From a virus (Duplodnaviria; Heunggongvirae; Uroviricota; Caudoviricetes): a DNA stretch of 18,593 nucleotides. The stretch spans positions 1-18,593 of IMG/VR virus record IMGVR_UViG_2534681832_000034. One strand, 5' to 3'. Positions 1-18,593 of this stretch are shown here, piece by piece. The notes beneath the pieces are model-generated. The model was not told the origin of the DNA. It did no database searches and saw nothing but the letters and a program-made list of their open reading frames with translations. The translations under genes were made by a program, and so were the position numbers. Positions within the stretch are counted from its first letter, which is position 1; the number at the start of each line of letters is the position of its first letter.

Positions 1-1035
1 CCTCTCGTCACCCGTAATGACATAGCCGAAGCGATCGCCCTGCATACTGCCTGTATGCCGACACGGGAGATCCCCGGCGCAATTGCCAACTATTTCATGA
101 TAACCAGGCGTTTTTATACCCGAACAGATAAGGCTGTGATCAACAGGCTACTGATAGCCGAGATCAGGGATTATTTGATTGAACAAGGACGTCTACGTTA
201 CGCAACGGTGGCAGCAGAAATGAGAAAGGAGGCACATAGAATGACCAGTAATAATTTGAATGTTAAAAAACCAGCATCTGTTGCTTCAGCTACGCCATCA
301 CCAGCTGTGAATGTTATCTCCAACACTGGAGATACAATCGACAGCCAGACGCTGTTAAAGATGGTTAATGAGGCGCGCAAGCTATGTGGGGAAAATGAGA
401 TCCGCAATAACGATTTTCTCAATAGAATTAAGGATGAACTTGATGGGGAATTTTACGAAACTTTCGTAAAATCCCATGGCACAAGGGCCGGGCGCTCTTT
501 TGAGGTCATAACCATGACCTACAAACAAGCCCTGCGAGTCGCCGCGCGCGAGTCAAAAGCGGTCCGCCGTTCGCTGATCGACAAACTGGAAGAATTGCAG
601 CAGGCAAACTCCCCTACCCCATCGATCCCCCAAACATTACCAGAAGCCCTACGTCTGGCTGCCGAGTTAGCAGAACAGAAAATGCAGTTGGAACAACAGC
701 TGGTGGCCGCAGCCCCTAAAGTCGATTTTGCTGACCGGGTATCAGCGGCTAATGGAATCCTGATCGGGAACTTTGCAAAGGTCGTTGGACTTAAGCAAAA
801 CGCCCTTTTCTCATGGTTGCGCCAGAACGGCATTCTCATGGCTTTTGGTGCGCGCAAAAACGTACCGCGCCAGCAGTACATTAACGCCGGGTATTTCACG
901 GTGAAAGAAGTGGTGCTGGATGATGAAAATGGCTACCAGATACGGCTGACGCCCCAATTAACGGGTAAAGGCCAGCAGTGGTTAACTCGCAAGCTACTTG
1001 ATGCTGGTTTGTTAAAACCAGTAGCAATAGGTTAA
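1..1035 (+). CDS. ant: Antirepressor, 5'-partial (Ant1-like); C-terminal ANT/KilAC-type domain
   Basis: Frame 1 is open from base 1 to TAA at 1033-1035, so the N-terminus lies upstream of the window. The C-terminal ~110 aa (LPEALRLAAELAEQK...APKVDFADRV...GNFAKV...WLRQNGIL...YFTVKE) is paralogous to the C-terminus of the next gene. P1 ant1/ant2 nested organisation is recalled, not searched. Confidence 0.6.
   Translation, partial: PLVTRNDIAEAIALHTACMPTREIPGAIANYFMITRRFYTRTDKAVINRLLIAEIRDYLIEQGRLRYATVAAEMRKEAHRMTSNNLNVKKPASVASATPSPAVNVISNTGDTIDSQTLLKMVNEARKLCGENEIRNNDFLNRIKDELDGEFYETFVKSHGTRAGRSFEVITMTYKQALRVAARESKAVRRSLIDKLEELQQANSPTPSIPQTLPEALRLAAELAEQKMQLEQQLVAAAPKVDFADRVSAANGILIGNFAKVVGLKQNALFSWLRQNGILMAFGARKNVPRQQYINAGYFTVKEVVLDDENGYQIRLTPQLTGKGQQWLTRKLLDAGLLKPVAIG
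241..1035 (+). CDS. Nested in-frame antirepressor isoform (Ant2-like), 264 aa
   Basis: ATG at 241 preceded by AAGGAGG (226-232) at 8-nt spacing, in the same frame as the longer ORF. Confidence 0.5.
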   Translation: MTSNNLNVKKPASVASATPSPAVNVISNTGDTIDSQTLLKMVNEARKLCGENEIRNNDFLNRIKDELDGEFYETFVKSHGTRAGRSFEVITMTYKQALRVAARESKAVRRSLIDKLEELQQANSPTPSIPQTLPEALRLAAELAEQKMQLEQQLVAAAPKVDFADRVSAANGILIGNFAKVVGLKQNALFSWLRQNGILMAFGARKNVPRQQYINAGYFTVKEVVLDDENGYQIRLTPQLTGKGQQWLTRKLLDAGLLKPVAIG

Positions 1036-1040
1036 CAAAA

Positions 1041-1072
1041 GAAAAAACCTGCCAGCAAACTGGCAGGTTTCT
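1041..1072 (+). terminator. Rho-independent terminator after the antirepressor gene
   Basis: Stem CCTGCCAG (1048-1055), loop CAAA, CTGGCAGG (1060-1067), followed by TTTCT. Confidence 0.6.
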
Positions 1073-1111
1073 GAGCAGATCGTCCAACCCGATCTGGATC
1101 GGGTCAGAAAA

Positions 1112-1129
1112 ATTTGCTCTAATAAATTT
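1112..1129 (+). promoter_or_regulatory. P1 C1-repressor operator-like site upstream of kilA-like gene
   Basis: ATTTGCTCTAATAAATTT is a near-perfect match to the remembered asymmetric C1 operator consensus ATTGCTCTAATAAATTT, about 70 bp upstream of the 1199 start. Confidence 0.6.
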
Positions 1130-1198
1130 CGTTTTCTAAGTGCAAAGAATCACCTTTTCGAGCTGGTGATTGAAGGTTGATGCAAATTTGGAGAAAAA

Positions 1199-1999
1199 AT
1201 GCAACAAACATTCAATGCGGATATGAATATATCAAACCTTCATCAAAATGTCGATCCTTCAACCACTCTGCCTGTTATTTGTGGTGTTGAAATTACGACC
1301 GACCGCGCTGGCCGTTACAACCTTAATGCTCTACACAGAGCGAGCGGACTCGGTGCCCATAAAGCGCCAGCTCAATGGCTAAGAACGCTGTCAGCCAAAC
1401 AGCTTATCGAAGAGCTTGAAAAAGAAACTATGCAGAATTGCATAGTTTCGTTCGAAGGCCGTGGCGGCGGTACGTTTGCCCATGAATTGCTCGCTGTGGA
1501 GTACGCAGGCTGGATTTCTCCCGCGTTTCGGCTGAAGGTAAACCAGACATTTATCGACTATCGAGCCGGAAGATTACAACCTGCTATTCCGCAGAGTCTC
1601 CCTGAAGCTCTCCGTTTGGCTGCCGACCTGGCAGAGCAAAAGCAACGGCTGGAGCAAAAAATGCTTATGGATGCGCCTAAAGTCGAATTCGCCGAACGCG
1701 TTGCTACCGCCAGCGGGGTTCTAATCGGCAACTATGCCAAAGTGCTCGGTCTGGGCCAAAACTATCTCTTCACCTGGTTGCGTGATAACGGAATTCTGAT
1801 CGCAACCGGTGAACGCAGGAACGTCCCCAAACAAGAATACATATCCCGTGGGTATTTCACCCTTAAAGAAACCGTGATCGATACAAGCAATGGAAGCAGG
1901 ATTTCTTTCACGACTCGTATAACCGGCAAAGGTCAGCAGTGGCTGATGAAGCGATTGCTTGATACTGGTGTGCTGGTACCTGTCGCGGCAACGCGCTAA
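1199..1999 (+). CDS. kilA: KilA-N domain / ANT(KilAC) domain protein, 266 aa
   Basis: ATG 1199 with GGAG at 5-nt spacing. The N-terminal region (VICGVEITTDRAGRYNLNALHRASG...GTFAHELLAVEYAGWISPAFRLKV) looks like a KilA-N domain; the C-terminus is the shared ANT-type domain. Confidence 0.85.
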   Translation: MQQTFNADMNISNLHQNVDPSTTLPVICGVEITTDRAGRYNLNALHRASGLGAHKAPAQWLRTLSAKQLIEELEKETMQNCIVSFEGRGGGTFAHELLAVEYAGWISPAFRLKVNQTFIDYRAGRLQPAIPQSLPEALRLAADLAEQKQRLEQKMLMDAPKVEFAERVATASGVLIGNYAKVLGLGQNYLFTWLRDNGILIATGERRNVPKQEYISRGYFTLKETVIDTSNGSRISFTTRITGKGQQWLMKRLLDTGVLVPVAATR

Positions 2000-2028
2000 C
2001 AGACGTAGTAAGAACCACCAGCATTGTA

Positions 2029-2607
2029 ATGCTGGCTAAAGTCACTTTCCTGAGCTGTATAACGATGAGCGATTTTACTTTTTCTGGCTATGAATTGGCC
2101 TGCTTTGTAACACACTCCGGTCTATCCCGTAGCGCCGGGCATATCCTGTCGCAATGTGCAAATCTAGCGGCAACAACCAGTGAATACTTCATTCACAAGC
2201 CTCACCGCCTGATCGCGGCAGAAACTGGTTATAGCCAATCAACCGTCGTTCGTGCATTCCGTGAAGCTGTAAACAAAGGAATTCTGTCTGTAGAGATTGT
2301 TATCGGCGATCACCGTGAACGTCGCGCTAACCTGTACCGGTTTACACCATCCTTTTTGGCCTTCGCACAACAAGCCAAAAATGCGCTGATTGAAAGCAAA
2401 TTAAAGATCTCTTCAGCGGCAACCAAGGTTAAAGCTGTTCTCGCTAAGACATTGGCTTTATTTAATTTTTTATCCACACCCCCATGTCAAAATGATACCC
2501 CCTCCCCCTGTCAGGATGACGTGGCAATAAAGAATAAGAAGTCACAAGTTAAAAAACAAAAAGATCAGTTTCCGGCGGTGCCGGAACGACCAGACTCAAA
2601 AAATTGA
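2029..2607 (+). CDS. HTH DNA-binding protein; probably the N-terminal part of a longer protein (possibly RepL-like lytic replication initiator)
   Basis: ATG 2029, TGA 2605-2607; helix-turn-helix-like segment AETGYSQSTVVRAFREAVNKGIL; basic Lys-rich tail. The RepL assignment is a positional guess (downstream of kilA). Confidence 0.55.
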   Translation: MLAKVTFLSCITMSDFTFSGYELACFVTHSGLSRSAGHILSQCANLAATTSEYFIHKPHRLIAAETGYSQSTVVRAFREAVNKGILSVEIVIGDHRERRANLYRFTPSFLAFAQQAKNALIESKLKISSAATKVKAVLAKTLALFNFLSTPPCQNDTPSPCQDDVAIKNKKSQVKKQKDQFPAVPERPDSKN

Positions 2608-2873
2608 CTTCATGGATCGCTGAGGCAAAAGCAAAGGCTGACAATCTGCGGTTATCCAAAAAACGCGCTCAAAAACATGAGTTCAAGCAGAAAGTAGAGG
2701 CGGCAGCGCGGAAATATGCTTACCTGAAGGACAAGCGTTCTCCTGATATTGGCGGGATATCAAACTTCGATAATCTGCCGCATTGCATGACGGTAAACGA
2801 AGCTCTTAATGCGGTTTTAGCCAAAAATAAAGATAACGAACAATGGGGTATACCGGCAGGATTCAGAGGGTGA
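2604..2873 (+). CDS. ORF with no in-frame ATG near its 5' end; likely the -1-frame continuation of 2029-2607
   Basis: This frame is open from 2553 (stop at 2550-2552). It overlaps the upstream stop as TTGA and has no SD; the first in-frame Met is near the C-terminus. Confidence 0.4.
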   Translation: MTSWIAEAKAKADNLRLSKKRAQKHEFKQKVEAAARKYAYLKDKRSPDIGGISNFDNLPHCMTVNEALNAVLAKNKDNEQWGIPAGFRG

Positions 2874-2923
2874 TAGATTGCTCTAATCTGGAGTCACCTG
2901 GCGTTTTCAGTTTGAGGTCGGAG

Positions 2924-3169
2924 ATGCAATCTGATTTTTTACAGTTAGCGATCGCTTTTGCAGGATATGTTTGTATTGGCTTCTGTGTATACATGATCAG
3001 CCGAAAAATGCTTGTCGATATCGACCGCAAAGAACGAGCAGAGGAGATCTTAGTATGGATTTTCTTTGGCGCGGTCTGGCCATTAGGGATCATGTTTGCT
3101 GCAACATTTCTTCTGATGTGGATATTCACCCTTCCAGGTGATTTCTATAGAAAAAAAGCCAGACATTGA
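2924..3169 (+). CDS. Small membrane protein, 81 aa, two predicted TM helices
   Basis: ATG 2924 preceded by GAGGTCGGAG; hydrophobic stretches LAIAFAGYVCIGFCVYMI and ILVWIFFGAVWPLGIMFAATFLLMWIF; TGA 3167-3169. Confidence 0.55.
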   Translation: MQSDFLQLAIAFAGYVCIGFCVYMISRKMLVDIDRKERAEEILVWIFFGAVWPLGIMFAATFLLMWIFTLPGDFYRKKARH

Positions 3170-3239
3170 TACAATCGTTGCGGGTGCTTGAGGCTATCTG
3201 CTTCAGGCATTACCCGAAAAGCAGATAGAAGAAAGCCCC

Positions 3240-3307
3240 AGATAACATTACGCGTCCTGCAAGACGCTTAACATTAATCTGAGGCCATATCTATGCTTAG
3301 CATACGT
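3240..3307 (-). ncRNA. sok: Predicted Sok-like antisense RNA covering the mok start region
   Basis: Minus-strand promoter: -35 TTGACC (plus 3337-3332), 18-bp spacer, -10 TAATCT (plus 3313-3308). The transcript would run antisense across the mok ATG (3293). A stem GCGTC/GACGC at about 3251-3266 is a candidate 3' structure. Ends are approximate. Confidence 0.45.
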
Positions 3308-3499
3308 AGATTAGCCTCTTACCGACCAAAAGGTCAAGGAGAAGCAGGCTATGAAGCAGCAAAAAGCGATGTTAATCGCTCTGATCGTCATCTGTTTAAC
3401 CGTCATTGTGACGGCACTGGTAACGAGGAAAGACCTCTGCGAGGTACGAATCCGAACCGGCCAGACGGAGGTCACTGTCTTCACAGCCTACGAATCTGA
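3293..3499 (+). CDS. mok: mok-like overlapping reading frame (translation-coupling ORF of the hok locus)
   Basis: ATG 3293; 68-codon ORF overlapping almost all of hok in another frame, as in hok/mok/sok loci. Confidence 0.5.
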   Translation: MLSIRRLASYRPKGQGEAGYEAAKSDVNRSDRHLFNRHCDGTGNEERPLRGTNPNRPDGGHCLHSLRI

Positions 3500-3506
3500 A
3501 AGGTAA
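3351..3506 (+). CDS. hok: Hok/Gef-family type I toxin, 51 aa
   Basis: Translation MKQQKAMLIALIVICLTVIVTALVTRKDLCEVRIRTGQTEVTVFTAYESER matches the Hok family pattern (LIVxCLT...LTRKxLCExRxRxG..EV.AF.AYES). AAGGAG precedes the ATG. The leader (GGTGCTTGAGGC..., TAGCCTCTTACCG, CAAGGAGAAG) resembles the R1 hok mRNA as I remember it. Confidence 0.8.
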   Translation: MKQQKAMLIALIVICLTVIVTALVTRKDLCEVRIRTGQTEVTVFTAYESER

Positions 3507-3577
3507 GAGACCTGGCGGGGAGAGATCTCCGCCACTCTTAGTGTGTCAGGTATCCTCAATGCACCCTTTCATCTCCA

Positions 3578-3606
3578 AATAAAAAAGCTCCCGAAGGAGC
3601 TTTAAA
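3578..3606. terminator. Bidirectional rho-independent terminator (end of minus-strand late operon; probable hok mRNA 3' end)
   Basis: Stem GCTCC (3587-3591), loop CGAA, GGAGC (3596-3600), flanked by A6 upstream and TTT downstream, so the minus-strand transcript ends hairpin + U6. Confidence 0.7.
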
Positions 3607-3622
3607 ATACAAGGGATGACTC

Positions 3623-4132
3623 TTAATCCCACTCAATCCAGTTGTAGACGATACGAAGTGACGGGCGCACAGCGGCAGTCACATCTTCGGTACTAAAGTC
3701 GATTGCATCACTGTAGATTTTGCAGTCCAACATTTCAATTGTTGTAGCAGCTTTTGTTACAGCGTTAACCCCGGAAGATTTGGATTCAGGGGTAGCAGCC
3801 ATCGTGATATCAACATAGTCCTTCGCCGCAATGCGATCCTTGATGAACTGAAGAATATCGCCTTCGATAGTCTCCACGCACTGGACCTGGATTTCCCCAG
3901 AGTTTCGAATTGGTCCGTGCTGGTTGAACTTCACACCATTCGGACCATAGTCCTCCACATCCTCGCGGGTCATTTCAGGAATTTGCGACGTGCGAACCAG
4001 TACGCTGATATCTTCATGGCCTGCAACAGTGAGCTGGAATTCAGAAGATACCAGTCGTTCGCCTTTGGCCGCGTTGGCAGTATAGCGGCCCTTAATAAAT
4101 TTACGGTTTCCCTTAGTGTTATTGTGCCCCAT
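3623..4132 (-). CDS. Late-operon structural/morphogenesis protein, 169 aa (function unassigned)
   Basis: ATG at 4132 (minus) with AAAGGA SD; TAA at 3623-3625; last gene before the terminator. Confidence 0.8.
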   Translation of the reverse strand: MGHNNTKGNRKFIKGRYTANAAKGERLVSSEFQLTVAGHEDISVLVRTSQIPEMTREDVEDYGPNGVKFNQHGPIRNSGEIQVQCVETIEGDILQFIKDRIAAKDYVDITMAATPESKSSGVNAVTKAATTIEMLDCKIYSDAIDFSTEDVTAAVRPSLRIVYNWIEWD

Positions 4133-4143
4133 ATAAAATCCTT

Positions 4144-4725
4144 TTACTGGAACGCCCGAACAATATCGGAGCTGTTATATATCGAAGAACCGGTCAACTG
4201 GAGGTTGACGGTGTTTTTCAGGAAATGCCCATTGCTGTCCCTGGGCGCATCGAGATCGAAACTTATGTCCTGGATAGCGACATCAATGATGTTGATCTGG
4301 CGACCAATGTTTAGCGTCACACGCTCCGGGATTCGACCACCAATACTGGCATCTTTAAGTTCCGGGCTAATCATCGCTGACAATGCGGCGATAGCTCCTG
4401 AAACCTCCGTGAATGGATCAAACAAAGCGATGAAAGTTACTGGCAGCGTGAAAGTTGGCGGTGTTCCCCCCTCCCAAACCATTAAGCTGTTCCAACGGGC
4501 CACCGACGTTGTTTCAGTACCAACCTGCGCAAAACCACTGAAGGCACCAGCAACAGACCCCATGGACATACCGGTAAACGGCGCTTCCCAATTCTGGGCC
4601 ATGTTCATTGCTGCCCCCTGGCTGATATATCCGGTAACCTGGTACTGAGAGTTCGTTAAAGTAACTTTCAGAAATGGCGATACACCGTCAGCCTGGCTGT
4701 AAACCCCATAAGGTATAGGTGCCAT
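4144..4725 (-). CDS. Late-operon structural/morphogenesis protein, 193 aa (function unassigned)
   Basis: ATG at 4725 (minus); Gly/Ala/Ser/Thr-rich composition typical of virion proteins; packed 11 nt upstream of the next gene. Confidence 0.8.
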   Translation of the reverse strand: MAPIPYGVYSQADGVSPFLKVTLTNSQYQVTGYISQGAAMNMAQNWEAPFTGMSMGSVAGAFSGFAQVGTETTSVARWNSLMVWEGGTPPTFTLPVTFIALFDPFTEVSGAIAALSAMISPELKDASIGGRIPERVTLNIGRQINIIDVAIQDISFDLDAPRDSNGHFLKNTVNLQLTGSSIYNSSDIVRAFQ

Positions 4726-4760
4726 TCAAGTTAAAGGCCGGAGTTCTCCGGCCTCCTCCT

Positions 4761-5576
4761 TTAGCCAAGGCGCTTACGGCGCAGTTTCATTGACTTTTTG
4801 CGGGCAAGTTTTGCCGCACCCGTCTGGGCTTTTCGACGCGCTTTTTTCAGCGCCGATTTTTGAGCCGCAGTCAGACGTTTTTTACGCAGGCGTTTACGGA
4901 TGAGTTTGATCTCACCGTTACGAACAACCTTCTTAAATGCTTCAGTCAGCATTTCATCAGAAGTGCCAGCAACAACAAACGCCGCTTCCAGTTCGTCACG
5001 GTCGTCGCTATCTAAACCAGCGATAGAGGCACCAACATCAGCAGCTGCGTCGTCGTCTTCATCGTCAGCCAGTGCTTCGATCAGGTCATCATCTACACCG
5101 CATGCTGCGAGGAAGTCAGCAACATTTGCCCATGCTTCGTTATAGGCATCGTCCTGTTCTTCTGTAACTTCGGAGTCGTCGTCATCAGAGATACCAGCGA
5201 TAGCCTGAACGAAACCATCAAGGGAGTCGAAAGTCAGATCACCGCTATCAGCCCAGGCGAAAACGGCGTCGGCCGCATCACTCAACGCATTCTGCATAGC
5301 ACTTCTATTTGCAGCTTCCAGAATCATCTGGTGCGCCTGTTCGACGGTCCATTCTTTACCGTCTTTCCCTTCCAGGATTTGCTCAGGAGCCGGGGCAGAT
5401 GGAACGTTATCGTTAGTCTGTGCCGCCGGTTCCGGATTATTATTAATAACCGGATCTGTTGGCTGTTCGGCGCTTGCTCGGGCAGACTCCATCAGCTGCA
5501 CAGGATCAGAGTTCAAAGCGAAACGAGACAGTCCATTCCCCAAAAATGCCCCGGATTGAAAAAAGTTTTTGCTCAT
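4761..5576 (-). CDS. Highly acidic protein with poly-basic C-terminal tail, 271 aa (possible scaffold or internal/DNA-associated virion protein)
   Basis: ATG at 5576 (minus) with AAGGGA SD; long Asp/Glu runs (DDDDSEVTEEQDD, DDEDDDAAAD) followed by a C-terminal ~50 aa rich in Lys/Arg. Confidence 0.8.
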   Translation of the reverse strand: MSKNFFQSGAFLGNGLSRFALNSDPVQLMESARASAEQPTDPVINNNPEPAAQTNDNVPSAPAPEQILEGKDGKEWTVEQAHQMILEAANRSAMQNALSDAADAVFAWADSGDLTFDSLDGFVQAIAGISDDDDSEVTEEQDDAYNEAWANVADFLAACGVDDDLIEALADDEDDDAAADVGASIAGLDSDDRDELEAAFVVAGTSDEMLTEAFKKVVRNGEIKLIRKRLRKKRLTAAQKSALKKARRKAQTGAAKLARKKSMKLRRKRLG

Positions 5577-5585
5577 TGTATTCCC

Positions 5586-7175
5586 TTACTTAATAAGCAG
5601 CGGTACGCCCTGGATACGACGGGCTACGCCAGTCGGGCAGCAGGCCCAGACTACTTCCCATTTATCGAATTCCGCCTGCGTAACTTTCAGCACATACGGT
5701 TCTGTACCGTCAGCATCAGGATCACGAGGAGCCACCAGAGCGCCGGAGGCGACAAAGCGATCTAAAAGTTTGGTCATCCCTTTAGTCAGGCCAGCCGCAG
5801 TAATACCGTCCGGGCTATGCTTCATCTGTCGGGCTAACTGGACAAAGAAACGGCTGATTGCATTCATCAGGGATGGGACGTGCTGGAAGTGCAGATAGTT
5901 ATCCTGCGTGCAGCAAGTTAAAGCATCGTCGATGATCATCTGGCCAGAGGTGCCAACAGATACTTTATTGAGACGGCCCTTGACCATTGCTTCTTCGTCC
6001 GGGGTATCTTCCGGATACAGCGGTTGAATTGACGCACGAGCAATGACGGCACGTTCTTCACCAGCCGGTGAGTAATGCCAACCGCCGACATCAGAGTTTT
6101 TCTTGACGCCACGAGCTTTCGCCGCATACGCCACGCCAGACAGACCAAAGACCACACGGGATTGGGTCCATTTGTCTTTGCAGGAGAACGGGTAGTGATA
6201 GACAGCACAGCTTACATAATCGGTACCAAGTAAACCGGTATCTTCAACAGCAGAGAGCGCTTCCGTATACGTCAATGTCGGTTTGACATCAAAGAAGCCA
6301 TCAATCAGGCGATCAGAACAGATATTACCTAACGCGGTGATCGCCGCATTGTCATAGCAACCCAGGCCGAGAACAGCGGTGTACATGTACGGCGCATTGT
6401 TCAGCACCTTAACCGCACGCAGGTACGCAGCGGTTGAGATTTTCGACTGATCACCGTTGGTACCACCAGTGAACGCCAGCGATTTTTTATTTGTTACTTT
6501 CGCCGTCGAAATCAGCTCTTCATTAACAACCGCGCGCAGATATTTAGAACGGGCTTCCAGAGCCGTAGGCAGATAACACAAGCGGCCCATGTCATCTTTC
6601 GCTTCTTCCGCCAAAGACACAGTGTGTGTCTCCAGGGTCGTTACCACGCCGAGCGAAGTCGTCTGGGTCAGTTTTAAGAGGAAGCGTTCATTACCCGCGC
6701 TGTCCGCTGTTGCCGTTTCGATGGTTAACTCACGGGTAGGTGAAATACACGGATCACCATCATCAACGTAGATAGCAAAGGCTTCGCCACTATCAAGTTC
6801 AATTTCAGAACCGTATGGCAACGCACTGTAAGCCGGTTCGCCTGATTCATCGAACATAATAATCGGGAACTTCGCATCATCCGGAACAGCACGAACAACA
6901 TAACCTGACGTTTGCTGAATAGCTTCGTATACATGGCGAATTGGTTCGAACTGTGAGCCGGAAGACGGCTTCAGCGGTTCGCCGAGAACATCTTTGTAAT
7001 TGGACTCAGTAACCGCAAGAACAGTAAACGGCTTGCCACGCGCAAATACGCCAATACCAGCCCACAAGCTGCTATTTAATGCAACACCGGTAGATAACGT
7101 CGAATCGGCATTGATCGGGCTAACCGCGACGCCGGATGCATTACCTAATGACTGTTGAATTGAATATTGAGACAT
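5586..7175 (-). CDS. Large late structural protein, 529 aa (possibly contractile-tail sheath; P1 gene-22-like by position)
   Basis: ATG at 7175 (minus) with AGGGAAAG SD; TAA 5586-5588; composition typical of virion structural proteins. The sheath assignment is a weak guess from position and a C-terminal ...GAL... segment. Confidence 0.8.
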   Translation of the reverse strand: MSQYSIQQSLGNASGVAVSPINADSTLSTGVALNSSLWAGIGVFARGKPFTVLAVTESNYKDVLGEPLKPSSGSQFEPIRHVYEAIQQTSGYVVRAVPDDAKFPIIMFDESGEPAYSALPYGSEIELDSGEAFAIYVDDGDPCISPTRELTIETATADSAGNERFLLKLTQTTSLGVVTTLETHTVSLAEEAKDDMGRLCYLPTALEARSKYLRAVVNEELISTAKVTNKKSLAFTGGTNGDQSKISTAAYLRAVKVLNNAPYMYTAVLGLGCYDNAAITALGNICSDRLIDGFFDVKPTLTYTEALSAVEDTGLLGTDYVSCAVYHYPFSCKDKWTQSRVVFGLSGVAYAAKARGVKKNSDVGGWHYSPAGEERAVIARASIQPLYPEDTPDEEAMVKGRLNKVSVGTSGQMIIDDALTCCTQDNYLHFQHVPSLMNAISRFFVQLARQMKHSPDGITAAGLTKGMTKLLDRFVASGALVAPRDPDADGTEPYVLKVTQAEFDKWEVVWACCPTGVARRIQGVPLLIK

Positions 7176-7190
7176 AACTTTCCCTGTTAT

Positions 7191-7209: not shown

Positions 7210-7235
7210 TATGTTAAACGGAGAACTTCCCCTGA

Positions 7236-11380: not shown

Positions 11381-11500
11381 CGAAAGTCATCCTTTATGCT
11401 GTATTTTTGAATTTAATTAAAAATGCTGCATAAAATAATAATGTATGCGTAGATGCTTGTACATGGCATTCTCTGCATGTTTTGTTCATTTTGCACGATT
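11381..11500 (-). promoter_or_regulatory. par operon promoter/operator region
   Basis: AT-rich region upstream of parA with an imperfect inverted repeat (AAAAATGCTGCAT ... CTGCATGTTTTG), compatible with a ParA autoregulatory operator. Confidence 0.45.
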
Positions 11501-11520
11501 GAGAGTTACAAGAAAGGCAC

Positions 11521-11541
11521 AAAAAAGCCCCGTTCAGGGGC
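11521..11541 (-). terminator. Rho-independent terminator
   Basis: Minus-strand stem GCCCC / GGGGC (loop TGAAC) followed by T6 (plus A6 at 11521-11526), 8 nt after the stop at 11549. Confidence 0.7.
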
Positions 11542-11548
11542 ATCAGTG

Positions 11549-11953: not shown

Positions 11954-12022
11954 GATAGAAGTAACATCCAGTTCTTTTTCGAAAGAGCGAGCAGCATCTA
12001 CTGGACGCTGAAGTAAATCATT

Positions 12023-12358
12023 CTACTTAATGCGCTCGAGAATCCCTCCCCACATATCATTTAGATATTCGATATGAGCCAAAACCTTATCAAGACACTC
12101 TCGTGTAAACCATTCAGTATGCCCGCCACCGGCGCTTTTCTCCCACGGCGCATTCCAGGGGAAAAAGGTTGCGTGTAAAGCCCGCTCAAGATTAACCATT
12201 GCCAAACGCGTACCACGATAGACCCGTGAAAGCGCAAAATCGGGACTCACTTGTAGCCCTTTAAACCGTGCCAATGGACCACATGAAATGCCGATTTTAA
12301 AAGTATCTCCGTTCTCCGGCACCAGAACGTAGAGGTAGTGTTGTTTCTCTTCTTGCAT
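12023..12358 (-). CDS. GIY-YIG / T5orf172-like domain protein, 111 aa as annotated (ends at an in-frame amber)
   Basis: ATG at 12358; motif HYLYVLVPENGDTFKIGISCGPLARFKGL resembles the GIY-YIG/T5orf172 core; stop is TAG at 12023-12025. Confidence 0.6.
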   Translation of the reverse strand: MQEEKQHYLYVLVPENGDTFKIGISCGPLARFKGLQVSPDFALSRVYRGTRLAMVNLERALHATFFPWNAPWEKSAGGGHTEWFTRECLDKVLAHIEYLNDMWGGILERIK

Positions 12359-12393
12359 ATCAATACCACTGCTTGATGAGAACCGCGCAAATG

Positions 12394-12649
12394 TTGACTA
12401 TGCGCGAAAGTTAATGTGAATAGTTGACTATGCGCGATGTGACTACAGTCAAAAGTTGACTGTAGTCGATTTAACTCCACCAAAGATCGACTATGTAAGA
12501 TATTGTCGGGAGAAACGTTGACTATACGCGATGAAATGACCCTAAAAGCCATCTCAATAGCGACTTGCAGAATATTGACGCCAGCAAAAATCCACCAGCG
12601 TCAACGAATGTCGCCTATAGTCAACTTCTCGCTATCGCATATAGTCAAT
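12394..12649. repeat. incA: incA-like iteron array (about 9-10 RepA-binding repeats, mixed orientation)
   Basis: Repeats of core TTGACTRTRCGCGA and its reverse complement (e.g. 12394-12407, 12424-12437, 12441-12452, 12456-12469, 12518-12531, 12613-12625, 12637-12649), immediately 3' of repA. Confidence 0.8.
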
Positions 12650-12650
12650 A

Positions 12651-13535
12651 TTATGGATTGCGCTTATGGATCTGAAAGCCGATTTTCCTGCCGTTTTTTA
12701 TCTCTGAAAATTTAAGATATTCAATAGCTTCCAAATCTTTCATGGCTTTTCTGATAACGCTATTTTGCACGCTAACGGATGATTTGAGATTAAGCCTTGC
12801 TCTAAGGCGCTCAATGCTGACAGGTGCCGGGTTGGCGGGTAGAGCCTCAAAGAATGTATACAGTACCTTGGCCGTCTCTTTGCGCCCGAGCTTATCCAGC
12901 ATCTTCAGCTTCAGGATTCGCTTATAGTCAACATAGTAAAGTTCAGATAGCTGTTTCTGCGGCTGGATCTCGATAACATCAAGCTCGGTATTCAGGCTGC
13001 TATATGCCAACAAGTTGACGTTAATGTTATTGAGATGACCTTTTGCCGCCGGGAAGCGGAATTTGACAACTGTCTGCTGAATGCGTGTCAGAGAGTCATC
13101 AATACTTTTACGGAACGCCTTTGAAAGGCGCTTACGTGGATAGCCGCATCGATCGGCAAACTCGGAGAATGGCAGGGTGATTATGCCGTCATCATCAGGT
13201 GCGTAGTCAAACAACGCGGAGGTTATGCCCACCCACACCTTAAAATCAGTATCCATATCCAGGCGTGGACCATGAATTTCAATTCCCTCATAGCCTTCCT
13301 GCTCAACAATTTTGAGGCTTGATAGTTCTTCGGTTGCGTTCGTTGTGTTTGTAGTAACTGACGATCCGCGACGTAGTGCCACATTGGTAGATTTTAAGGT
13401 TGGCACAAACACACCTAAGCGCAACAAAGCAATGGGTTGTATAGTGCTATTGTTATTGGGTTTCAGGCTGTGGATTTCTCCTGTATTTCCTGCAACTTCT
13501 TCAACGCTAAGGAAGCCTTTATTTTCTTCCAGCAT
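12651..13535 (-). CDS. repA: Iteron-binding plasmid replication initiator RepA, 294 aa
   Basis: ATG at 13535 with GGAG SD (GGAGAAACCACG-ATG); the ORF track's 13592 start is a TTG lying inside the origin region. Flanked by iteron arrays on both sides. Confidence 0.85.
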   Translation of the reverse strand: MLEENKGFLSVEEVAGNTGEIHSLKPNNNSTIQPIALLRLGVFVPTLKSTNVALRRGSSVTTNTTNATEELSSLKIVEQEGYEGIEIHGPRLDMDTDFKVWVGITSALFDYAPDDDGIITLPFSEFADRCGYPRKRLSKAFRKSIDDSLTRIQQTVVKFRFPAAKGHLNNINVNLLAYSSLNTELDVIEIQPQKQLSELYYVDYKRILKLKMLDKLGRKETAKVLYTFFEALPANPAPVSIERLRARLNLKSSVSVQNSVIRKAMKDLEAIEYLKFSEIKNGRKIGFQIHKRNP

Positions 13536-13582
13536 CGTGGTTTCTCCATATGTGGCGCGGCCTGGCGTCATCTGGATTGCAG

Positions 13583-13826
13583 TTATCAACAACTGTGAAT
13601 AGTCAGGCTCTAAAATCGCGTACAGTCAATGTTTCTGTCGCATATAGTCAACAATAAATCGCGTGCAGTCAACAATAAATCGTGCACAGTCAACATAAAA
13701 TCGCGTATAGTCAATGTTGATCCCATTTCAGGCCAGAAATGGCGCGGCTTACAGCGATCCGGGATCTTCTTTGGATCTTCCTGGGTTCTCTTTAGGATCT
13801 GTTTATTGGATCTATGCTGTGGATAA
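13583..13826. promoter_or_regulatory. Plasmid replication origin: DnaA boxes + iterons + GATC cluster
   Basis: DnaA-box-like TTATCAACA (13583-13591); perfect DnaA box TGTGGATAA (13818-13826); six GATC sites between 13719 and 13812. Confidence 0.75.
13613..13714. repeat. Origin iterons (incC-like): five direct repeats at ~21-bp phasing
   Basis: AAATCGCGTACAGTCAA (13613-13629), CTGTCGCATATAGTCAA, AAATCGCGTGCAGTCAA, AAATCGTGCACAGTCAA, AAATCGCGTATAGTCAA (13698-13714), all in one orientation directly upstream of repA. Confidence 0.85.
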
Positions 13827-13834
13827 GTTGAATA

Positions 13835-13855
13835 AACCGGCCAACATAGCCGGTT
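13835..13855 (-). terminator. Hairpin after the 13869-14261 gene (weak terminator candidate)
   Basis: AACCGGC / GCCGGTT stem with 7-nt loop; the downstream minus-strand sequence is only moderately T-rich. Confidence 0.3.
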
Positions 13856-13868
13856 GGAAGGAAGGGTA

Positions 13869-14261
13869 TTATTCTACGCTTTCGATAAGAAGACCATGTT
13901 CATAACATTTAAGCTCATCGCCTTCGTACAGGAATTGGTATCCAATACCACCATTTTCATGGACATTAGGGAATAACTCATAACTCACTGAAGAGCAAAT
14001 CACACCAATGCAGCGATCAACGCCTTCTCGTTCTTCAGTGCTGAAAAAATCCTCTTCGGTAAGAACATGAGTACATTGCTCATCAGCATAGGTCGGAAAT
14101 ACATGCTCGATGCAATCCGGGTGTTTTAAACCAAGCTGATCGGCAAGCTCGAAAGCATGACGGTATTGTTCAGATCCTGGCTTGCCAACAGTGATGTGCT
14201 CAATTTTGTAGATTGAAGTCGCTTTGTTGATAGTTTGCTTTACTGTTACTTTATCAGACAT
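13869..14261 (-). CDS. Hypothetical protein, 130 aa
   Basis: ATG at 14261 with AAAGGGA SD; stop 13869-13871; 11 nt downstream of the lipoprotein gene. Confidence 0.75.
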   Translation of the reverse strand: MSDKVTVKQTINKATSIYKIEHITVGKPGSEQYRHAFELADQLGLKHPDCIEHVFPTYADEQCTHVLTEEDFFSTEEREGVDRCIGVICSSVSYELFPNVHENGGIGYQFLYEGDELKCYEHGLLIESVE

Positions 14262-14272
14262 AAAAATCCCTT

Positions 14273-14605
14273 TTAGTTACCGCTGATAGCGCGGTTGTAA
14301 TCATTAACGTTGCGATTCTTCCTGTTAATCCCCATCAGCATCGTTTCTGTATCGAGGATATACGCTGGCAGATCATCAAAATATTCACTGCTAAACTCTG
14401 GCATCCTGCACATAAACGCACTTTTGGGGGCAGGGTGGTTAACCTTTGTCGGCGTCGGCGTTAAATTCGCTGATCGACTCCCGGAGCAACCGCTGAGTGT
14501 CAGCAGGAATGCGCTGGCGAACATTACCCGCCGCAACCAGTTGTTTCTGAACTTCAGCTTTTCGTTCCATTTGCCTGTCAGCATATTTGGCTTGTTCTGA
14601 TTCAT
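14273..14605 (-). CDS. Lipoprotein (signal peptidase II lipobox LTLSG-C), start codon ambiguous
   Basis: Lipobox L-T-L-S-G-C with Ser at +2 and a Pro/Thr-rich mature region (TPTPTKVNHPAPK). ATG 14605 has AGGAAG SD; alternative starts at 14584 and 14524. The 5' 167 bp overlap the upstream gene in another frame. Confidence 0.7.
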   Translation of the reverse strand: MNQNKPNMLTGKWNEKLKFRNNWLRRVMFASAFLLTLSGCSGSRSANLTPTPTKVNHPAPKSAFMCRMPEFSSEYFDDLPAYILDTETMLMGINRKNRNVNDYNRAISGN

Positions 14606-14861
14606 TTTTCACTTCCTGGCTGTGAAAATGTTGCTCTGCTTTGTTCATCGTCTCAATGGTCTGGTTAAGATCCATTATTGACTTATCACGTTCCTTAACA
14701 GCCTGATCAAGACTGCCAATTTTCTCCATGGCTTGCTTTAGCTGATGACGTTCCCATGCAAACCCAGCACCAACAAGTGCGCAAATCAGAACAAGAACAC
14801 CAGTAGCAGCAAGTTTCTCCTTCAAAGACAAAGCTGTTTTTAACGTAGAAAAGAATGACAT
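14439..14861 (-). CDS. N-terminally membrane-anchored coiled-coil (periplasmic) protein, 140 aa
   Basis: ATG at 14861 with AGGAGG SD (the ORF track's 14888 start is TTG); one hydrophobic segment (LAATGVLVLICALVGAGFAW) then a charged helical region. Confidence 0.75.
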   Translation of the reverse strand: MSFFSTLKTALSLKEKLAATGVLVLICALVGAGFAWERHQLKQAMEKIGSLDQAVKERDKSIMDLNQTIETMNKAEQHFHSQEVKNESEQAKYADRQMERKAEVQKQLVAAGNVRQRIPADTQRLLRESISEFNADADKG

Positions 14862-15082
14862 GTCTTCCTCCTGAAGAAAAATTATCAATGAAGTCCTTTG
14901 TTACCGTGCCGCTTTGTTTAATTCATCAAGAACAGAATCAGGAACCAAAGCGGCGACTACGCTGGCTGTGCTGGCCTTATTTGCTGATGCTTCCGCAAGC
15001 GCGGTACCGATAGCATGGTTATAAGCAGTGAACCGCCCCGGAAATCCTGGAGACTAAACTCCCTGAGAAAGAGGTAAACAGG

Positions 15083-15409
15083 ATGACTAAAAATACTCGT
15101 TTTTCCCCCGAAGTCCGTCAGCGGGCGATTCGTATGGTTCTGGAAAGTCAGGATGAATATGACTCACAGTGGGCGGCAATTTGTTCCATTGCCCCAAAGA
15201 TTGGCTGTACGCCGGAGACTCTGCGTGTCTGGGTTCGCCAGCATGAGCGGGATACCGGGGGCGGTGATGGTGGGCTCACCAGCGCTGAACGTCAGCGTCT
15301 GAAAGAGCTGGAACGTGAAAATCGTGAACTGCGCCGCAGTAACGATATCCTTCGCCAGGCTTCCGCTTATTTTGCGAAGGCGGAGTTCGACCGCCTCTGG
15401 AAAAAATGA
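15083..15409 (+). CDS. IS3-family transposase OrfA (HTH, leucine-zipper)
   Basis: ATG 15083; [21 protein letters not shown]... typical IS3-family OrfA; ends in the A-run frameshift window. Confidence 0.9.
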
Positions 15410-16296
15410 TGCCACTGCTGGATAAGCTGCGTGAGCAGTACGGGGTCGGACCGGTATGCAGCGAACTGCATATTGCCCCGTCAACGTATTACCATTGTCA
15501 GCAACAGCGACATCATCCGGATAAACGCAGTGCCCGTGCGCAGCACGACGACTGGCTGAAGAGAGAGATACAGCGCGTATACGATGAAAATCATCAGGTG
15601 TACGGTGTGCGTAAAGTCTGGCGTCAGTTGTTACGGGAAGGAATCAGGGTGGCCAGATGTACAGTGGCACGTCTCATGGCGGTTATGGGACTTGCCGGTG
15701 TTCTCCGGGGTAAAAAGGTCCGTACGACCATCAGCCGGAAAGCCGTTGCCGCAGGCGACCGCGTAAACCGTCAGTTCGTGGCAGAACGACCTGACCAGCT
15801 GTGGGTGGCTGATTTTACTTACGTCAGCACATGGCAGGGCTTCGTCTATGTGGCGTTTATCATTGATGTGTTTGCCGGATACATCGTGGGGTGGCGGGTC
15901 TCATCGTCTATGGAAACGACATTCGTGCTGGATGCGCTGGAGCAGGCGTTGTGGGCCCGTCGTCCGTCTGGCACCATCCATCACAGCGATAAAGGCTCTC
16001 AGTATGTGTCACTGGCCTATACGGAGCGACTAAAAGAAGCCGGATTACTGGCATCAACAGGGAGTACAGGCGACTCGTATGACAACGCGATGGCTGAGAG
16101 CATCAATGGTCTTTACAAAGCGGAGGTAATACACCGTAAGAGCTGGAAAAACCGTGCAGAAGTGGAACTGGCCACACTAACGTGGGTGGACTGGTATAAC
16201 AATCGACGATTGCTGGGAAGGCTGGGCCATACTCCTCCGGCAGAAGCAGAAAAAGCTTATTATGCTTCCATCGGAAACGATGATCTGGCAGCCTGA
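15406..16296 (+). CDS. IS3-family transposase OrfB (DDE catalytic domain), expressed as OrfAB by -1 frameshift
   Basis: DDE-type motifs ([23 protein letters not shown]); -1 overlap with orfA at A-AAA-AAT-G (15400-15409). Confidence 0.9.
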
Positions 16297-17010
16297 GTTC
16301 ACAGATAAAACACTCTCCAGGAAACCCGGGGCGGTTCACAGTTATGGCTACGTTGGCGCTTTCATTCGCTCGTTCATACTGCTGTTGTAACGCAGTTGTG
16401 GGTGCTGTTGTCTGGTTGAAAACAACCCCAAACTGTTCAGTTGCTACTTTCAGAGATTCAATTTGCTCTTCTGTTAGTGCTGGTGGGGGAGTGGCAGTGC
16501 CGCCGCCTGAACCAGAGCCTGACGAGCTTTCTGAGCCAGTGTTAAGGGCCTGGTTAATCTCCCCCATTGCAGCGACTAAACTTGATGTATTAAGCGCGTT
16601 AACAGCGTCCTCAAGCGATTTAGTAATATTCACATCACCAATGGCAATAGAGATCGGCAGTTCTGAAACTTCTCGCTCATTAGCACGGCAGTAAACATCC
16701 CAACCAATATCGAGTTGAAGCAGCATTGACAGATCTGCATAACCAGCCAACAGGTCCGCGTGCTTAGTTGCCAGTTCTCCAATGTTCGTTAAGCCGGTTG
16801 TGGTTGTTCTGATCGTTGAAACATAGCTGGTAATAGTGTCGGGATAGACAATTGTATCCAGAATTAATCCGGTCAATTCTTCTGCAAGCAGTTTTGCTGT
16901 GTTAGCACTGTTTCGTGCCGATGTTATGGCACCAGGTGTTTTCATCCCACCGGCGGCGGCCAATTTTTTATATGCGGATAACTGGTAGTCTTTTTCCAGC
17001 ATGATATCTC

Positions 17011-17295
17011 CTAACTTACCTGAACCAGGCCGTCTCCGGACGCTACGGTAGATCCGCATGAAACAGGGTCACCAACGCATACGATCCCTTTACCATTGAC
17101 GGTAAACCATGCCCTGGTTGATATAGCTTGCCCACCGTGCGTACTGTTTCCATCGGTATGCTGTGCATATTGCTTACCATCAACTAACACTTCGACTCCG
17201 TTGACTTTAAGTAGTGGTTCACTCTCTACAGGAGGCCTGGATGGGAATCCTCCGTGCCCCGAACAAATGCTGTCTTTTGTTGCAATGCTTGCCAC
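17011..17295 (-). CDS. PAAR-like (spike-tip type) small protein, 94 aa, GTG start
   Basis: Motifs CSGHGG, STHGGQ and GDPVSCG in a ~95-aa Gly/Val-rich protein resemble PAAR-repeat proteins. No in-frame ATG, so GTG 17295 is the likely start. Stop TAG overlaps the SD of the downstream gene. Confidence 0.55.
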   Translation of the reverse strand: MASIATKDSICSGHGGFPSRPPVESEPLLKVNGVEVLVDGKQYAQHTDGNSTHGGQAISTRAWFTVNGKGIVCVGDPVSCGSTVASGDGLVQVS

Positions 17296-17376
17296 GCCAT
17301 CACCAATTATTTGCTCTGATTTTCGTTATTTTAACTTAGGTTATTTGTGGTCTGTATGGCGTTTACTTATCGCAAA

Positions 17377-17393
17377 ATTGCTCTAATAAATAT
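17377..17393 (+). promoter_or_regulatory. P1 C1-repressor operator-like site upstream of the 17465 operon
   Basis: ATTGCTCTAATAAATAT matches the remembered C1 operator consensus at 16 of 17 positions. Confidence 0.6.
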
Positions 17394-17464
17394 TGTTTTT
17401 TATGTCGTATTTTCGGTACCATTCAGCCATCGCCCTTCAATGGGCATTTGTTTGGAGTCGTCAG

Positions 17465-17749
17465 ATGCAGATGGAGCTAATAAGCCGCAAAGAGTTCGAT
17501 AGCCGTGTAACCAGCGGTGAACTCGACAACTTGCAGGCTATCAAGGTGAAAGAAGGCTTTTGCCTCATTGGGAATCAGAGCGGAATAAATCGCGTTTTTA
17601 TGCTTCGCCGTACGGATTTGAAGCCATTTGTCTGGAAGAACGAAATTGGTCCCAGCTCATACGCTCAAACGAGGGGGTGCCACAACCTGGCCTTTTTCTA
17701 CAAAGACGAGCTTTCTGTGGTTGATATTCAAGGGTTACAACATGTTTAA
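17465..17749 (+). CDS. Hypothetical protein, 94 aa, translationally coupled to the rdgC homologue
   Basis: ATG 17465 with GGAG at 7-nt spacing (the track's 17393 start is TTG within the operator); stop TAA 17747-17749 overlaps the next ATG (ATGTTTAA). Confidence 0.7.
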
Positions 17750-18152
17750 GCACTGGAAAAACATTACTATTTATAAACTTTCTCGTGAGGCGGATCTGAC
17801 CGACTTAGAAGATAAAAAGAAAATGATCCTTTTCACGCCATGCGGTAGTCAGGATATGGCCAAGTTCGGTTTTGTATCGCCATTTGGTGATAATTCTGAA
17901 GTTATCGCTATGCATGGAAATGGTTTTATCCTTGTTGAAGCAAAGCGCGAAACAAAAATTCTTCCCCCGCCGGTTATCCAGCGAGCTATTCAAGAAAAAA
18001 TTGAAAAACTTGAGCAAGAACAAGCGCGTAAACTGAAGAAAACAGAGAAGGACTCCCTGAAAGACGAAGTTCTGCATTCTCTTCTGCCACGGGCTTTTTC
18101 AAAGTTTTCTGTTATCCAGGCGATCTACGACGGTTCATCGATAGGAATTTAA
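17742..18152 (+). pseudogene. rdgC: RdgC-homologue (recombination-associated protein), truncated to 136 aa by mobile-element insertion
   Basis: [16 protein letters not shown]...[13 protein letters not shown]...[52 protein letters not shown] closely parallels the N-terminal ~130 aa of E. coli RdgC (~300 aa); similarity stops at about 18131-18136 and a stop follows 5 codons later. Confidence 0.7.
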
Positions 18153-18593
18153 ATCCCAAAAAGATTAAAAAACACCCAAAAACGGATGTTTATTCAACAC
18201 TGCCTGCGTGCCATGAGTGCACCGCCGTCAATTAAATGGATCTTATCGATTGATACTGCATATCACTGATGGTTTTTTACCCCATTCCCCTGAAAATGGA
18301 CGCAACTTCTCCGATGCGGCTCTCAGCCGCACACCCGCTGTTGCGCCAGTGGCTCATGCATCAGGACCAGCTCTGTCAGACGGTAGCCCCGCTTCAGCCC
18401 CGTAAAACGCATCTGACCTCCGCACAGGATGCACTTCAGCGGGTCAACCTTCAGTAACCGCTGATACATCCCTCTCCACCTGATTTGCATCGCCGTCTTT
18501 CTCACCGTCTCCGTTATGACGTACACAACATCTTCCAGTAACCGGCGCTTCACCGGACTCAGGAAACCGTAGTACCTCACCATACGGAACCCC
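18137..18593 (-). mobile_element. End of an IS91-family (rolling-circle, HUH Y2 transposase) element, partial; continues beyond window
   Basis: Junction lies immediately 3' of GTTC (18133-18136), the tetranucleotide IS91-family elements insert beside; no terminal inverted repeat; transposase 3' end reads toward the junction. Confidence 0.5.
18323..18593 (-). CDS. IS91-family transposase, C-terminal fragment (N-terminus outside window)
   Basis: ORF open to the window edge; ...VRYYGFLSPVKRR... and a CxxCGG motif resemble the IS91/ISCR transposase C-terminus as I remember it; TGA at 18323-18325. Confidence 0.5.
   Translation of the reverse strand, partial: GFRMVRYYGFLSPVKRRLLEDVVYVITETVRKTAMQIRWRGMYQRLLKVDPLKCILCGGQMRFTGLKRGYRLTELVLMHEPLAQQRVCG

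Follow-up and report, generated by a model that had tools for sequence, protein, structure and literature searches.

Contig AIGF01000063.1, an 18,593-bp contig of the draft Escherichia coli assembly GCA_000249795.2, probably derives from an ordinary, maintained P1-like phage-plasmid (genus Punavirus) that has experienced insertion sequence (IS) traffic and allelic mosaicism and is not clearly decaying. The entire contig, to which an exact look-up of the truncated RepL protein led, was analyzed and is called the window below; it runs from ant1 to hrdC and represents about 18.6 kb of an element of roughly 95 kb, with approximately 75 kb lying outside it. The original prediction, made from the letters of the window alone, had described a segment of a P1-family phage-plasmid with two genes disrupted by IS elements, one in-frame amber codon and one frameshifted gene, and had proposed that the element was either decaying and possibly non-inducible, or under selection to lose some of its functions. 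All of these lesions are present in the sequence, and they differ in age and reliability. The interpretation placed on them is weak, with three of the four lying in genes that are dispensable in P1 or absent from it.

The assignment to the P1 family was confirmed by alignment. In megablast searches against phage records, P1 matched 75% of the window length at 97.4% identity, and vB_EcoM-Ro157c2YLVW (hereafter Ro157c2YLVW) matched 91% at 99.2%. Pairwise BLAST showed that positions 1-15029 (99.2%) and 16339-18137 (100%) are colinear with Ro157c2YLVW, and that P1 matches in four blocks alone (1-2887, 3581-11479, 13732-15029 and 16339-18137), with identities of 96.7% over 1-2887 and 98.3% over 3581-11479. 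The nearest relative is plasmid pE2855-2, which is 99.96% identical over 3581-15029, that is, 3 substitutions in 11.4 kb. The morphogenesis genes are colinear with those of P1, and the immunity-I/lytic block and the par genes with an iteron-controlled repA are all present, as expected of a Punavirus. A backbone 99.2-100% identical to this one has been deposited as the phage isolate Ro157c2YLVW, which is indirect evidence that the element may form virions and lysogenise as a plasmid. The lesions and the features adjoining them are as follows.

2029-2873, plus strand: repL, the lytic replication initiator gene, with oriL inside it; frameshifted, with six A (A6) at 2551-2556 versus seven (A7) in relatives
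9036-9041, unstranded: run of six T (T6), T7 in every relative, in the intergenic stretch upstream of gene 23; this contraction is private
11549-12358, minus strand: T5orf172/GIY-YIG-superfamily gene with an in-frame amber codon; colinear with the 269-amino-acid (aa) 'GIY-YIG nuclease family protein' of Ro157c2YLVW
14901-15028, minus strand: 3' fragment of upfB, the last ~42 codons; coordinates from Ro157c2YLVW upfB 16397-17185
15029-16338, plus strand: IS629/IS1203 (IS3 family), 1310 bp; 100% identical to RefSeq-annotated IS3-like IS1203 copies
16339-17002, minus strand: 5' fragment of upfB; 100% identical to Ro157c2YLVW from 16339; phrog_1559
17465-18136, plus strand: uhr (17465-17749), intact, and the 5' 396 nucleotides (nt) of hrdC/rdgC (17742-18136/7); colinearity with Ro157c2YLVW stops at 18137
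18137-18593, minus strand: IS91-family element, identified by nucleotide identity, of which the target-adjoining end and the 3' part of the transposase gene are present; the contig stops within it

Gene essentiality in P1 provides a means of judging these lesions. A genome-wide CRISPR interference (CRISPRi) map of P1 classed upfB, upfC, uhr, hrdC and dmt as non-essential for plaque formation and bplB, pmgG, 21, 22 and 23 as essential; repL, which the screen missed, appears there among the genes already known to be essential (PMC10695390). Reports on P1 also describe repL as essential for lytic replication (PMC9948254; PMC6906374). In the window, the P1-essential structural genes bplB, pmgG, 21, 22 and 23 are all intact, as are the maintenance functions (parABS, repA with its iterons, and hok/sok). 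With the lesions outside repL confined to genes that P1 lacks or can do without, the case for decay comes down to the repL frameshift, and loss of inducibility would follow only if that frameshift were real.

We infer the following order of events. The element probably belongs to a widespread sublineage that is unlike P1 in two variable slots: one holds an 81-aa open reading frame (ORF) and hok/sok for rlfA-rlfB-pmgF, and the other holds a non-P1, Rep3-type RepA with its iterons and the T5orf172/GIY-YIG gene in place of P1 incA-repA-incC. An old TCG-to-TAG change would have produced the amber codon in the accessory GIY-YIG gene and been passed on with the backbone; we place it first because it is common to several serotypes. 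A rolling-circle insertion of IS91 beside GTTC in hrdC would have come second, since it is shared with a sister contig, L021, that has the amber codon and T7 and is without IS629. The cut-and-paste insertion of IS629/IS1203 in upfB would have followed that of IS91, because it is private to the window. The homopolymer contractions in repL, at 9036 and in IS91, which are also private, would then represent either very recent slippage or artefacts.

Insertion sequences and the amber allele

The IS629/IS1203 copy in upfB has the terminal inverted repeats TGAACCGCCCCGG at both ends and two intact genes, orfA (15083-15409, 108 aa) and orfB (15406-16296, 296 aa), and Rfam places an ALIL frameshift pseudoknot at 15364-15480 (121.5 bits). 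It is flanked by a 3-bp target duplication, CAG, at 15026-15028 and 16339-16341, and upfB is colinear on either side. Because upfB resumes on both sides with CAG duplicated, the insertion is a bona fide transposition and not a mis-join. As far as could be checked, it also appears to be private to this strain. The 80-bp upfB::IS629 junction occurs in 0 of 5426 complete E. coli genomes, and it has no counterpart in L021, a near-identical contig that has 1 mismatch in 7.3 kb against the window, carries the amber codon, the hrdC::IS91 insertion and T7, and lacks IS629. Exact look-ups of the UpfB-IS629 read-through ORF, with two alternative starts, returned no match; neither did exact-pattern scans for both IS junctions in IMG/VR, for upfB::IS629 in GTDB genomes, and for hrdC::IS91 in JGI metagenomes.

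In hrdC, the reading frame is cut after nt ~396 (window position 18136/18137), directly after GGTTC, so that the junction reads GGTTC followed by ATCGATAGG. The sequence from 18137 onward is 99.6-99.8% identical to annotated IS91 family transposase elements, and the assignment to IS91 is based on this identity; the C-terminal 86 codons alone of the transposase lie in the window, and they have no Pfam match. The remaining 5' part of hrdC matches the RdgC profile of Pfam (128.7 bits) over profile positions 3-128 of 298 alone. One junction of the element is visible, and the other lies beyond the contig. Elements of the IS91 family insert 3' of GTTC or CTTG and produce no target duplication. One or the other of these tetranucleotides adjoins all four IS91 copies that we compared (those of the window, pE2855-2, pSF4-1 and pIDPH8234-2), and the 1830-bp copy in pE2855-2 has no target duplication.

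The hrdC::IS91 junction (18133-18162) is absent from the 5426 complete E. coli genomes and from PLSDB. It appears nonetheless to be shared or recurrent rather than private, because at least 24 draft contigs encode the 136-aa HrdC'-fusion protein that this junction creates. Over 1.8 kb, the upfB-hrdC flank of these contigs has 0-79 mismatches to that of the window, and the IS91 end comes in two variants among them. Either the GTTC in hrdC would be a hot spot for IS91, or the insertion would have been spread by recombination. The backbones of the contigs with this insertion vary, and include a P1-type RepA, a P7-like Par, and the non-P1 replicon with either an intact or an amber GIY-YIG gene.

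Related plasmids carry IS91 at other sites: in upfB (pE2855-2), at nt ~126 of rdgC (pSF4-1), and between upfB and rdgC (pIDPH8234-2). In pSF4-1 (O111:H8; L004 21531-26900), about 3.5 kb including the gene for a 960-aa autotransporter lie past the far end of IS91, after which rdgC resumes. This insert looks like cargo from read-through (one-ended) transposition of IS91.

The amber codon (TAG at 12023-12025) is codon 112 of 269 in the GIY-YIG gene, where Ro157c2YLVW has TCG. The 111-aa N-terminal product retains the whole T5orf172 domain (PF10544, residues 8-86, 30.3 bits against a cut-off of 20); the gene itself matches phrog_2876 and, weakly, the endonuclease family phrog_681. Annotations of pE2855-2, pSF4-1, pIDPH8234-2 and pSF26_102-2 show this gene split in the same way, and pO111_2 also has the amber codon. 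We found an exact 61-mer around the codon in at least 28 complete plasmids, including those of O111:H- 11128, O157:H7 and O103:H2, and the 111-aa fragment on at least 1000 contigs, versus 766 for one intact variant. Overall, the gene is present in 411 E. coli genomes. The amber is thus a real, old and successful allele inherited with the backbone; the suggestion that it marks decay of this particular element does not hold.

Downstream of the amber codon, a GTG-initiated ORF of 134 aa (11549-11953, minus strand) covers most of the C-terminal part, and at this place the RefSeq annotation of relatives has a 'hypothetical protein' of 123-126 aa as a gene of its own. The amber allele might express the nuclease-like and C-terminal domains as two polypeptides. 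We considered whether a suppressor tRNA could read the codon and rejected the idea: a close relative encodes tRNAs Asn(GTT), Tyr(GTA), Thr(TGT) and Met/Ile(CAT), with no suppressor among them, and no tRNA lies in the window itself. We likewise rejected the GIY-YIG protein, the 81-aa ORF and UpfB as known defence genes, since none of them matched a PADLOC family at E <= 0.01.

The repL frameshift and the case for decay

At the frameshift, repL carries GTTAAAAAAC, while all close relatives carry GTTAAAAAAAC. The RepL frame closes at 2607, giving 192 aa versus 281 aa, and the remainder lies in another frame (2604-2873). The A-run falls within the most AT-rich 43 bp of P1 repL (nt 498-540, 79% A/T). 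An element named AT2 has been reported as integral to RepL-driven replication (PMC9948254). The 43-bp stretch matches the description of AT2, and its base composition fits an overlap of the A-run with that element.

Few other sequences share the shortened run. The exact 61-mer with A6 occurs in 2 of 389 complete-genome records, in one of which every neighboring gene is flagged as frameshifted. Truncated RepL is found on 9 contigs versus 954 for one full-length variant, and at least 4 of the 9 bear AIF- or AIG-prefixed accessions, that is, they come from one accession series. The window has 3 private 1-bp indels, each a contraction of a run of at least 7 bases. One is in repL, another is the T6 run at 9036, whose exact 61-mer occurs in 0 of 551 complete-genome records and 0 of 11 other loci, and the last is an A-run at 18167 inside IS91, with A6 here versus A7 or A8 in relatives. 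Thus, 3 of the 4 runs of at least 7 bases were contracted to 6, while 0 of ~85 runs of 5-6 bases had changed. Such dependence on a length threshold is typical of homopolymer under-calling and points to an error of this kind in the draft assembly.

How often indel errors occur in these assemblies can be judged from sister drafts. Two drafts of the AIF/AIG series, L009 and L015, show 0 mismatches in 12 kb, yet a gene is split at each of the two single-base indels between them. More broadly, L009, L015 and L016 are 0-1 substitutions apart and have the A6 repL in common, and single-base indels among them split either a sit-like SLT gene or a 203-aa gene.

Several observations weigh against our view of an intact and maintained element. 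The A6 form of repL is found on at least 5 distinct backbones and in two lineages from separate sequencing projects (L009/L015/L016 and L010/L013). Because these lineages carry accession prefixes of different projects, the A-run probably also mutates in nature, and the frameshift in the window could be real. IS91 lies within gene 21, which is essential in P1, in the O111:H8 relative pSF26_102-2 (L025 16105-18748), and a deletion from upfB to rdgC adjoins IS91 in pIDPH8234-2 (L006 28541-31047). IS91 is very active among the P1-like plasmids of O111:H8 strains, and some of these plasmids are probably defective. IS-driven erosion therefore occurs in this plasmid group, and decay is a reasonable idea in general. 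In the window, the far IS91 junction lies outside the contig, where there may be a deletion or rearrangement past hrdC, and lesions in the unseen ~75 kb could make the element defective.

In weighing the possible explanations, we consider it an even chance that the sequencing platform under-called the homopolymers in repL, at 9036 and in IS91, so that the true repL is intact and the phage-plasmid is fully functional as far as the window shows. The confinement of the changes to the longest runs, the uniqueness of T6, the gene-splitting indels between the otherwise identical L009 and L015, and the complete A6 record surrounded by flagged frameshifts all argue for error. By a rough rate argument, three genuine homopolymer indels would be unexpected beside 3 substitutions in 11.4 kb. 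Long homopolymers are, on the other hand, natural slippage hot spots as well, and some of the backbones with A6 carry later accession series. If the frameshift were real, it would remove the C-terminal 105 residues of RepL and perhaps alter an AT-rich element of oriL, and the window would come from a decaying prophage-plasmid without lytic growth, in which the IS insertions and the amber were further erosion and the plasmid functions were retained. We regard this as possible and the less favored account. It draws on the essential role of repL in lytic replication (PMC9948254; PMC6906374; PMC10695390), the position of the A-run in the most AT-rich part of the gene, the A6 lineages, some of them independently assembled, the IS91 copy in gene 21 of relatives, and the conversion of phage-plasmids to plasmids, a theme of published work (PMC10879196). 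Against decay stand the same three contractions of long runs in a draft contig, the absence of T6 from all 551 complete genomes, the single accession series behind at least 4 of the 9 truncated RepL contigs, and the intact structural genes; moreover, the other three lesions are in genes dispensable or absent in P1, and the amber long predates this element. As to repL alone, artefact and real mutation are at roughly even odds.

The remaining explanations concern mainly the IS elements. Selection rather than neutral decay might account for them if losing hrdC (with a polar reduction of dmt) and upfB benefited the plasmid state; repeated IS insertions in the upfB-hrdC segment across P1-like plasmids would then be explained. 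This is unlikely, in our judgment. The identical hrdC::IS91 junction on diverged alleles with two IS91 end variants is in its favor, as are the further insertions in upfB, in rdgC and in the upfB-rdgC interval of the three relatives named above; the GTTC/CTTG rule together with tolerance in non-essential genes would explain the pattern equally well, IS91 has also struck the essential gene 21, and the junction is rare, with none in 5426 complete genomes or PLSDB. A bolder proposal, for which we see little likelihood, is that the repL A7 run (in its AT2/oriL-like stretch) and the GTTC at hrdC nt 396 are recurrent hot spots that drive a plasmid-only life, with slippage in the A-run acting as a lytic on/off switch and IS91 inserting repeatedly at one site of uhr-hrdC-dmt. 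Finally, the IS elements might be assembly chimeras, collapsed repeats joining unrelated contigs, as the draft source and the end of the contig inside IS91 would allow. We rejected this as scarcely credible, and for IS629 it is effectively refuted: upfB is contiguous on both sides of IS629 with the 3-bp direct repeat. For IS91, the breakpoint falls precisely behind GTTC and is reproduced in at least 24 independent assemblies.

An ordinary, maintained phage-plasmid thus remains the preferred reading. The example suggests caution with counts of lesions in draft contigs, which can lump together alleles passed on by descent, real IS insertions that are private and probable homopolymer errors, and claims of prophage decay should be weighed against gene essentiality. 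Two minor leads emerge: the hrdC::IS91 junction recurs on backbones that have diverged, and A6 repL recurs as well.

Variable slots and the remaining gene map

Gene order in the window, transferred from the annotations of P1 and Ro157c2YLVW, is ant1 (5' cut), kilA, repL, a variable slot, bplB, pmgG, 21, 22, 23, parS-parB-parA, a second variable slot with repA, upfA, mlp, ppfA, upfB, upfC, uhr and hrdC. The features outside the lesions are listed here.

1-1035, plus strand: ant1/ant2 antirepressor gene; colinear with P1 ant1; 5' end lost at the contig start
1113-1129, plus strand: C1 repressor operator upstream of kilA-repL, equivalent to P1 Op53/OrepL; one mismatch to ATTGCTCTAATAAATTT; position as in P1
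1199-1999, plus strand: kilA, intact, 266 aa (ORF list); length equal in P1 and Ro157c2YLVW
2924-3169, plus strand: 81-aa ORF just upstream of hok/sok; phrog_3772, a family without assigned function (181 bits); hypothetical in relatives
3182-3506, plus strand: hok/sok type I toxin-antitoxin (Rfam, Pfam), with leader and Sok target at 3182-3356, a mok-like ORF at 3293-3499 and hok at 3351-3506
3623-8942, minus strand: structural genes, all intact, with ORF lengths as in P1 and Ro157c2YLVW: bplB 3623-4132, pmgG 4144-4725, gene 21 4761-5576, gene 22 (sheath) 5586-7175, gene 23 (major capsid) 7236-8942
9081-11380, minus strand: P1-type partition module, intact, inside the 98.3% P1 block: parS ~9081-9163 (coordinates transferred from P1), parB 9166-10167, parA 10184-11380
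12389-12652, unstranded: incA-like iteron array on the downstream side of repA, with TCGCGCATAGTCAAC-like repeats in at least 6 copies; repeat families D1, D2, D3 and D4
12651-13538, minus strand: repA, Rep3-family plasmid initiator, intact; Pfam Rep3_C and Rep3_N; an 885-nt coding sequence in relatives
13611-13718, unstranded: origin-side iterons (incC/oriR equivalent), 5 copies, several 21 bp apart; repeat families D1 and D5
13869-14861, minus strand: upfA 13869-14261, mlp 14273-14605 and ppfA 14439-14861, intact (ORF list); colinear with P1 and Ro157c2YLVW
17011-17295, minus strand: upfC (PAAR-like), intact; ORF list, P1 annotation and phrog search
17377-17393, plus strand: C1 operator ahead of uhr-hrdC-dmt, equivalent to P1 Op68/Odmt; one mismatch to the consensus; position as in P1

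The hok/sok locus is real, and we predict that it encodes a toxin-antitoxin. The sok model of Rfam (RF01794) matches 3182-3356 with 114.9 bits (gathering score 59) over model positions 1-157, and the 51-aa Hok ORF at 3351-3506, which the mok-like ORF overlaps, matches the Pfam family HOK_GEF (PF01848) with 78.7 bits over positions 1-42 of 42. The hok gene is annotated as hokD in a 100% identical plasmid. The segment repL-hok-bplB is found in 235 E. coli genomes, the majority of the ~390 that carry this repL. In close relatives this slot holds other cargo: pE2855-2 has rlfA (DUF3800) there, and pSF4-1 a ParA/DUF3892 module.

The second non-P1 block, 11480-13731, contains the GIY-YIG gene and a RepA/iteron replicon. 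Its RepA shares 41% identity with that of P1 and is flanked on either side by iterons of its own, so that the entire plasmid replicon is of another type than that of P1. The original prediction called for alignment to P1 references, which did recover colinear blocks, and it overlooked this swapped replicon. It was correct that replication and partition are intact: repA is an intact ORF flanked by iterons, and parABS lies in the 98.3% P1 block, where the parB and parA ORFs, at 333 and 398 aa, have the same lengths as those of P1.

It had also presented hok/sok and the GIY-YIG gene as likely acquisitions. Both are present. Among P1-like plasmids, Venturini et al. described regions of difference in which ORFs replace rlfA-rlfB-pmgF between repL and bplB, or lie between repA and parA, and P1's own rlf genes are regarded as recent acquisitions (PMC6906374). 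Because the P1 genes may themselves be recent, 'acquired' is valid relative to P1 only; with 235 and 411 genomes carrying them, hok/sok and the GIY-YIG gene represent the majority state in the P1-like plasmids of E. coli, and neither is a recent gain here.

The immunity-I and lytic replicon block (ant1/2, kilA, repL/oriL) is present under its C1 operator, with repL frameshifted. We saw 2 matches to the C1 operator in the window against a chance expectation of 0.10. No match within 3 mismatches of the consensus was found at 2877-2893, the P1 Op55/Orlf site directly after repL. Similarity to P1 stops at 2887, and Op55/Orlf seems to have been lost together with the rlf operon in this sublineage. 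In ant1, positions 394-521 show dense substitutions and small indels against Ro157c2YLVW (net +6 nt, frame kept), and the rest of the gene is ~99% identical; the patch is apparently a mosaic or hypervariable stretch of the antirepressor. A gap in ant1/2 of one P1 variant was described by Venturini et al. (PMC6906374).

The structural stretch 3623-8942 has zero indels against the phage isolate Ro157c2YLVW. A 243-aa ORF at 3917-4648 (plus strand), antisense to pmgG and bplB, was called as a gene, leaving pmgG uncalled and bplB shortened. Since pmgG and bplB both have full-length ORFs on the minus strand, this call most likely reflects a gene-calling error.

Comparison with known systems

Elements of this kind are already well described, and P1-like phage-plasmids with swapped slots and IS insertions have been documented. 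Gene order in Ro157c2YLVW (NC_050153), pO111_2 (NC_013370) and pE2855-2 (NZ_AP018798) is the same as in the window, with nucleotide identities of 99.2-99.96%, and all have the P1-type par genes, the non-P1 RepA and iterons, and the GIY-YIG gene. Ro157c2YLVW has the same region between repL and bplB, and pO111_2 and pE2855-2 have the amber codon in common with the window. Unlike the window, these three lack both the IS629 copy in upfB and the IS91 copy at nt 396 of hrdC, and all have A7 in repL and T7 at 9036. Furthermore, pE2855-2 has rlfA (DUF3800) in place of hok/sok and carries IS91 in upfB.

P1 (NC_005856) is colinear with the window at 95.6-98.3% over ant1-kilA-repL, bplB-pmgG-21-22-23-parS-parB-parA and upfA-mlp-ppfA-upfB-upfC-uhr-hrdC, and it has C1 operators at the same two places. 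It differs in having rlfA-rlfB-pmgF where the window has the 81-aa ORF and hok/sok, no GIY-YIG gene between parA and incA, iterons unlike those of the window, and Op55 after repL, which is unmatched here. The plasmids pSvP1, pTZ20_1P and pJIE250-3 (Venturini et al. 2019, PMC6906374) show regions of difference and IS interruptions like those of the window; they carry resistance or virulence cargo and larger deletions, whereas the window has no such cargo. Loss of repL was discussed in that study as blocking self-mobilisation (PMC6906374).

The hok/sok locus of plasmid R1 and the chromosomal hokD-type loci resemble that of the window in having a Hok/Gef ORF, an overlapping mok-like ORF and a sok-family leader. 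The locus in the window is distinguished by its position in a phage-plasmid slot beside the lytic replicon, and it is 85-91% identical to the chromosomal hokD loci.

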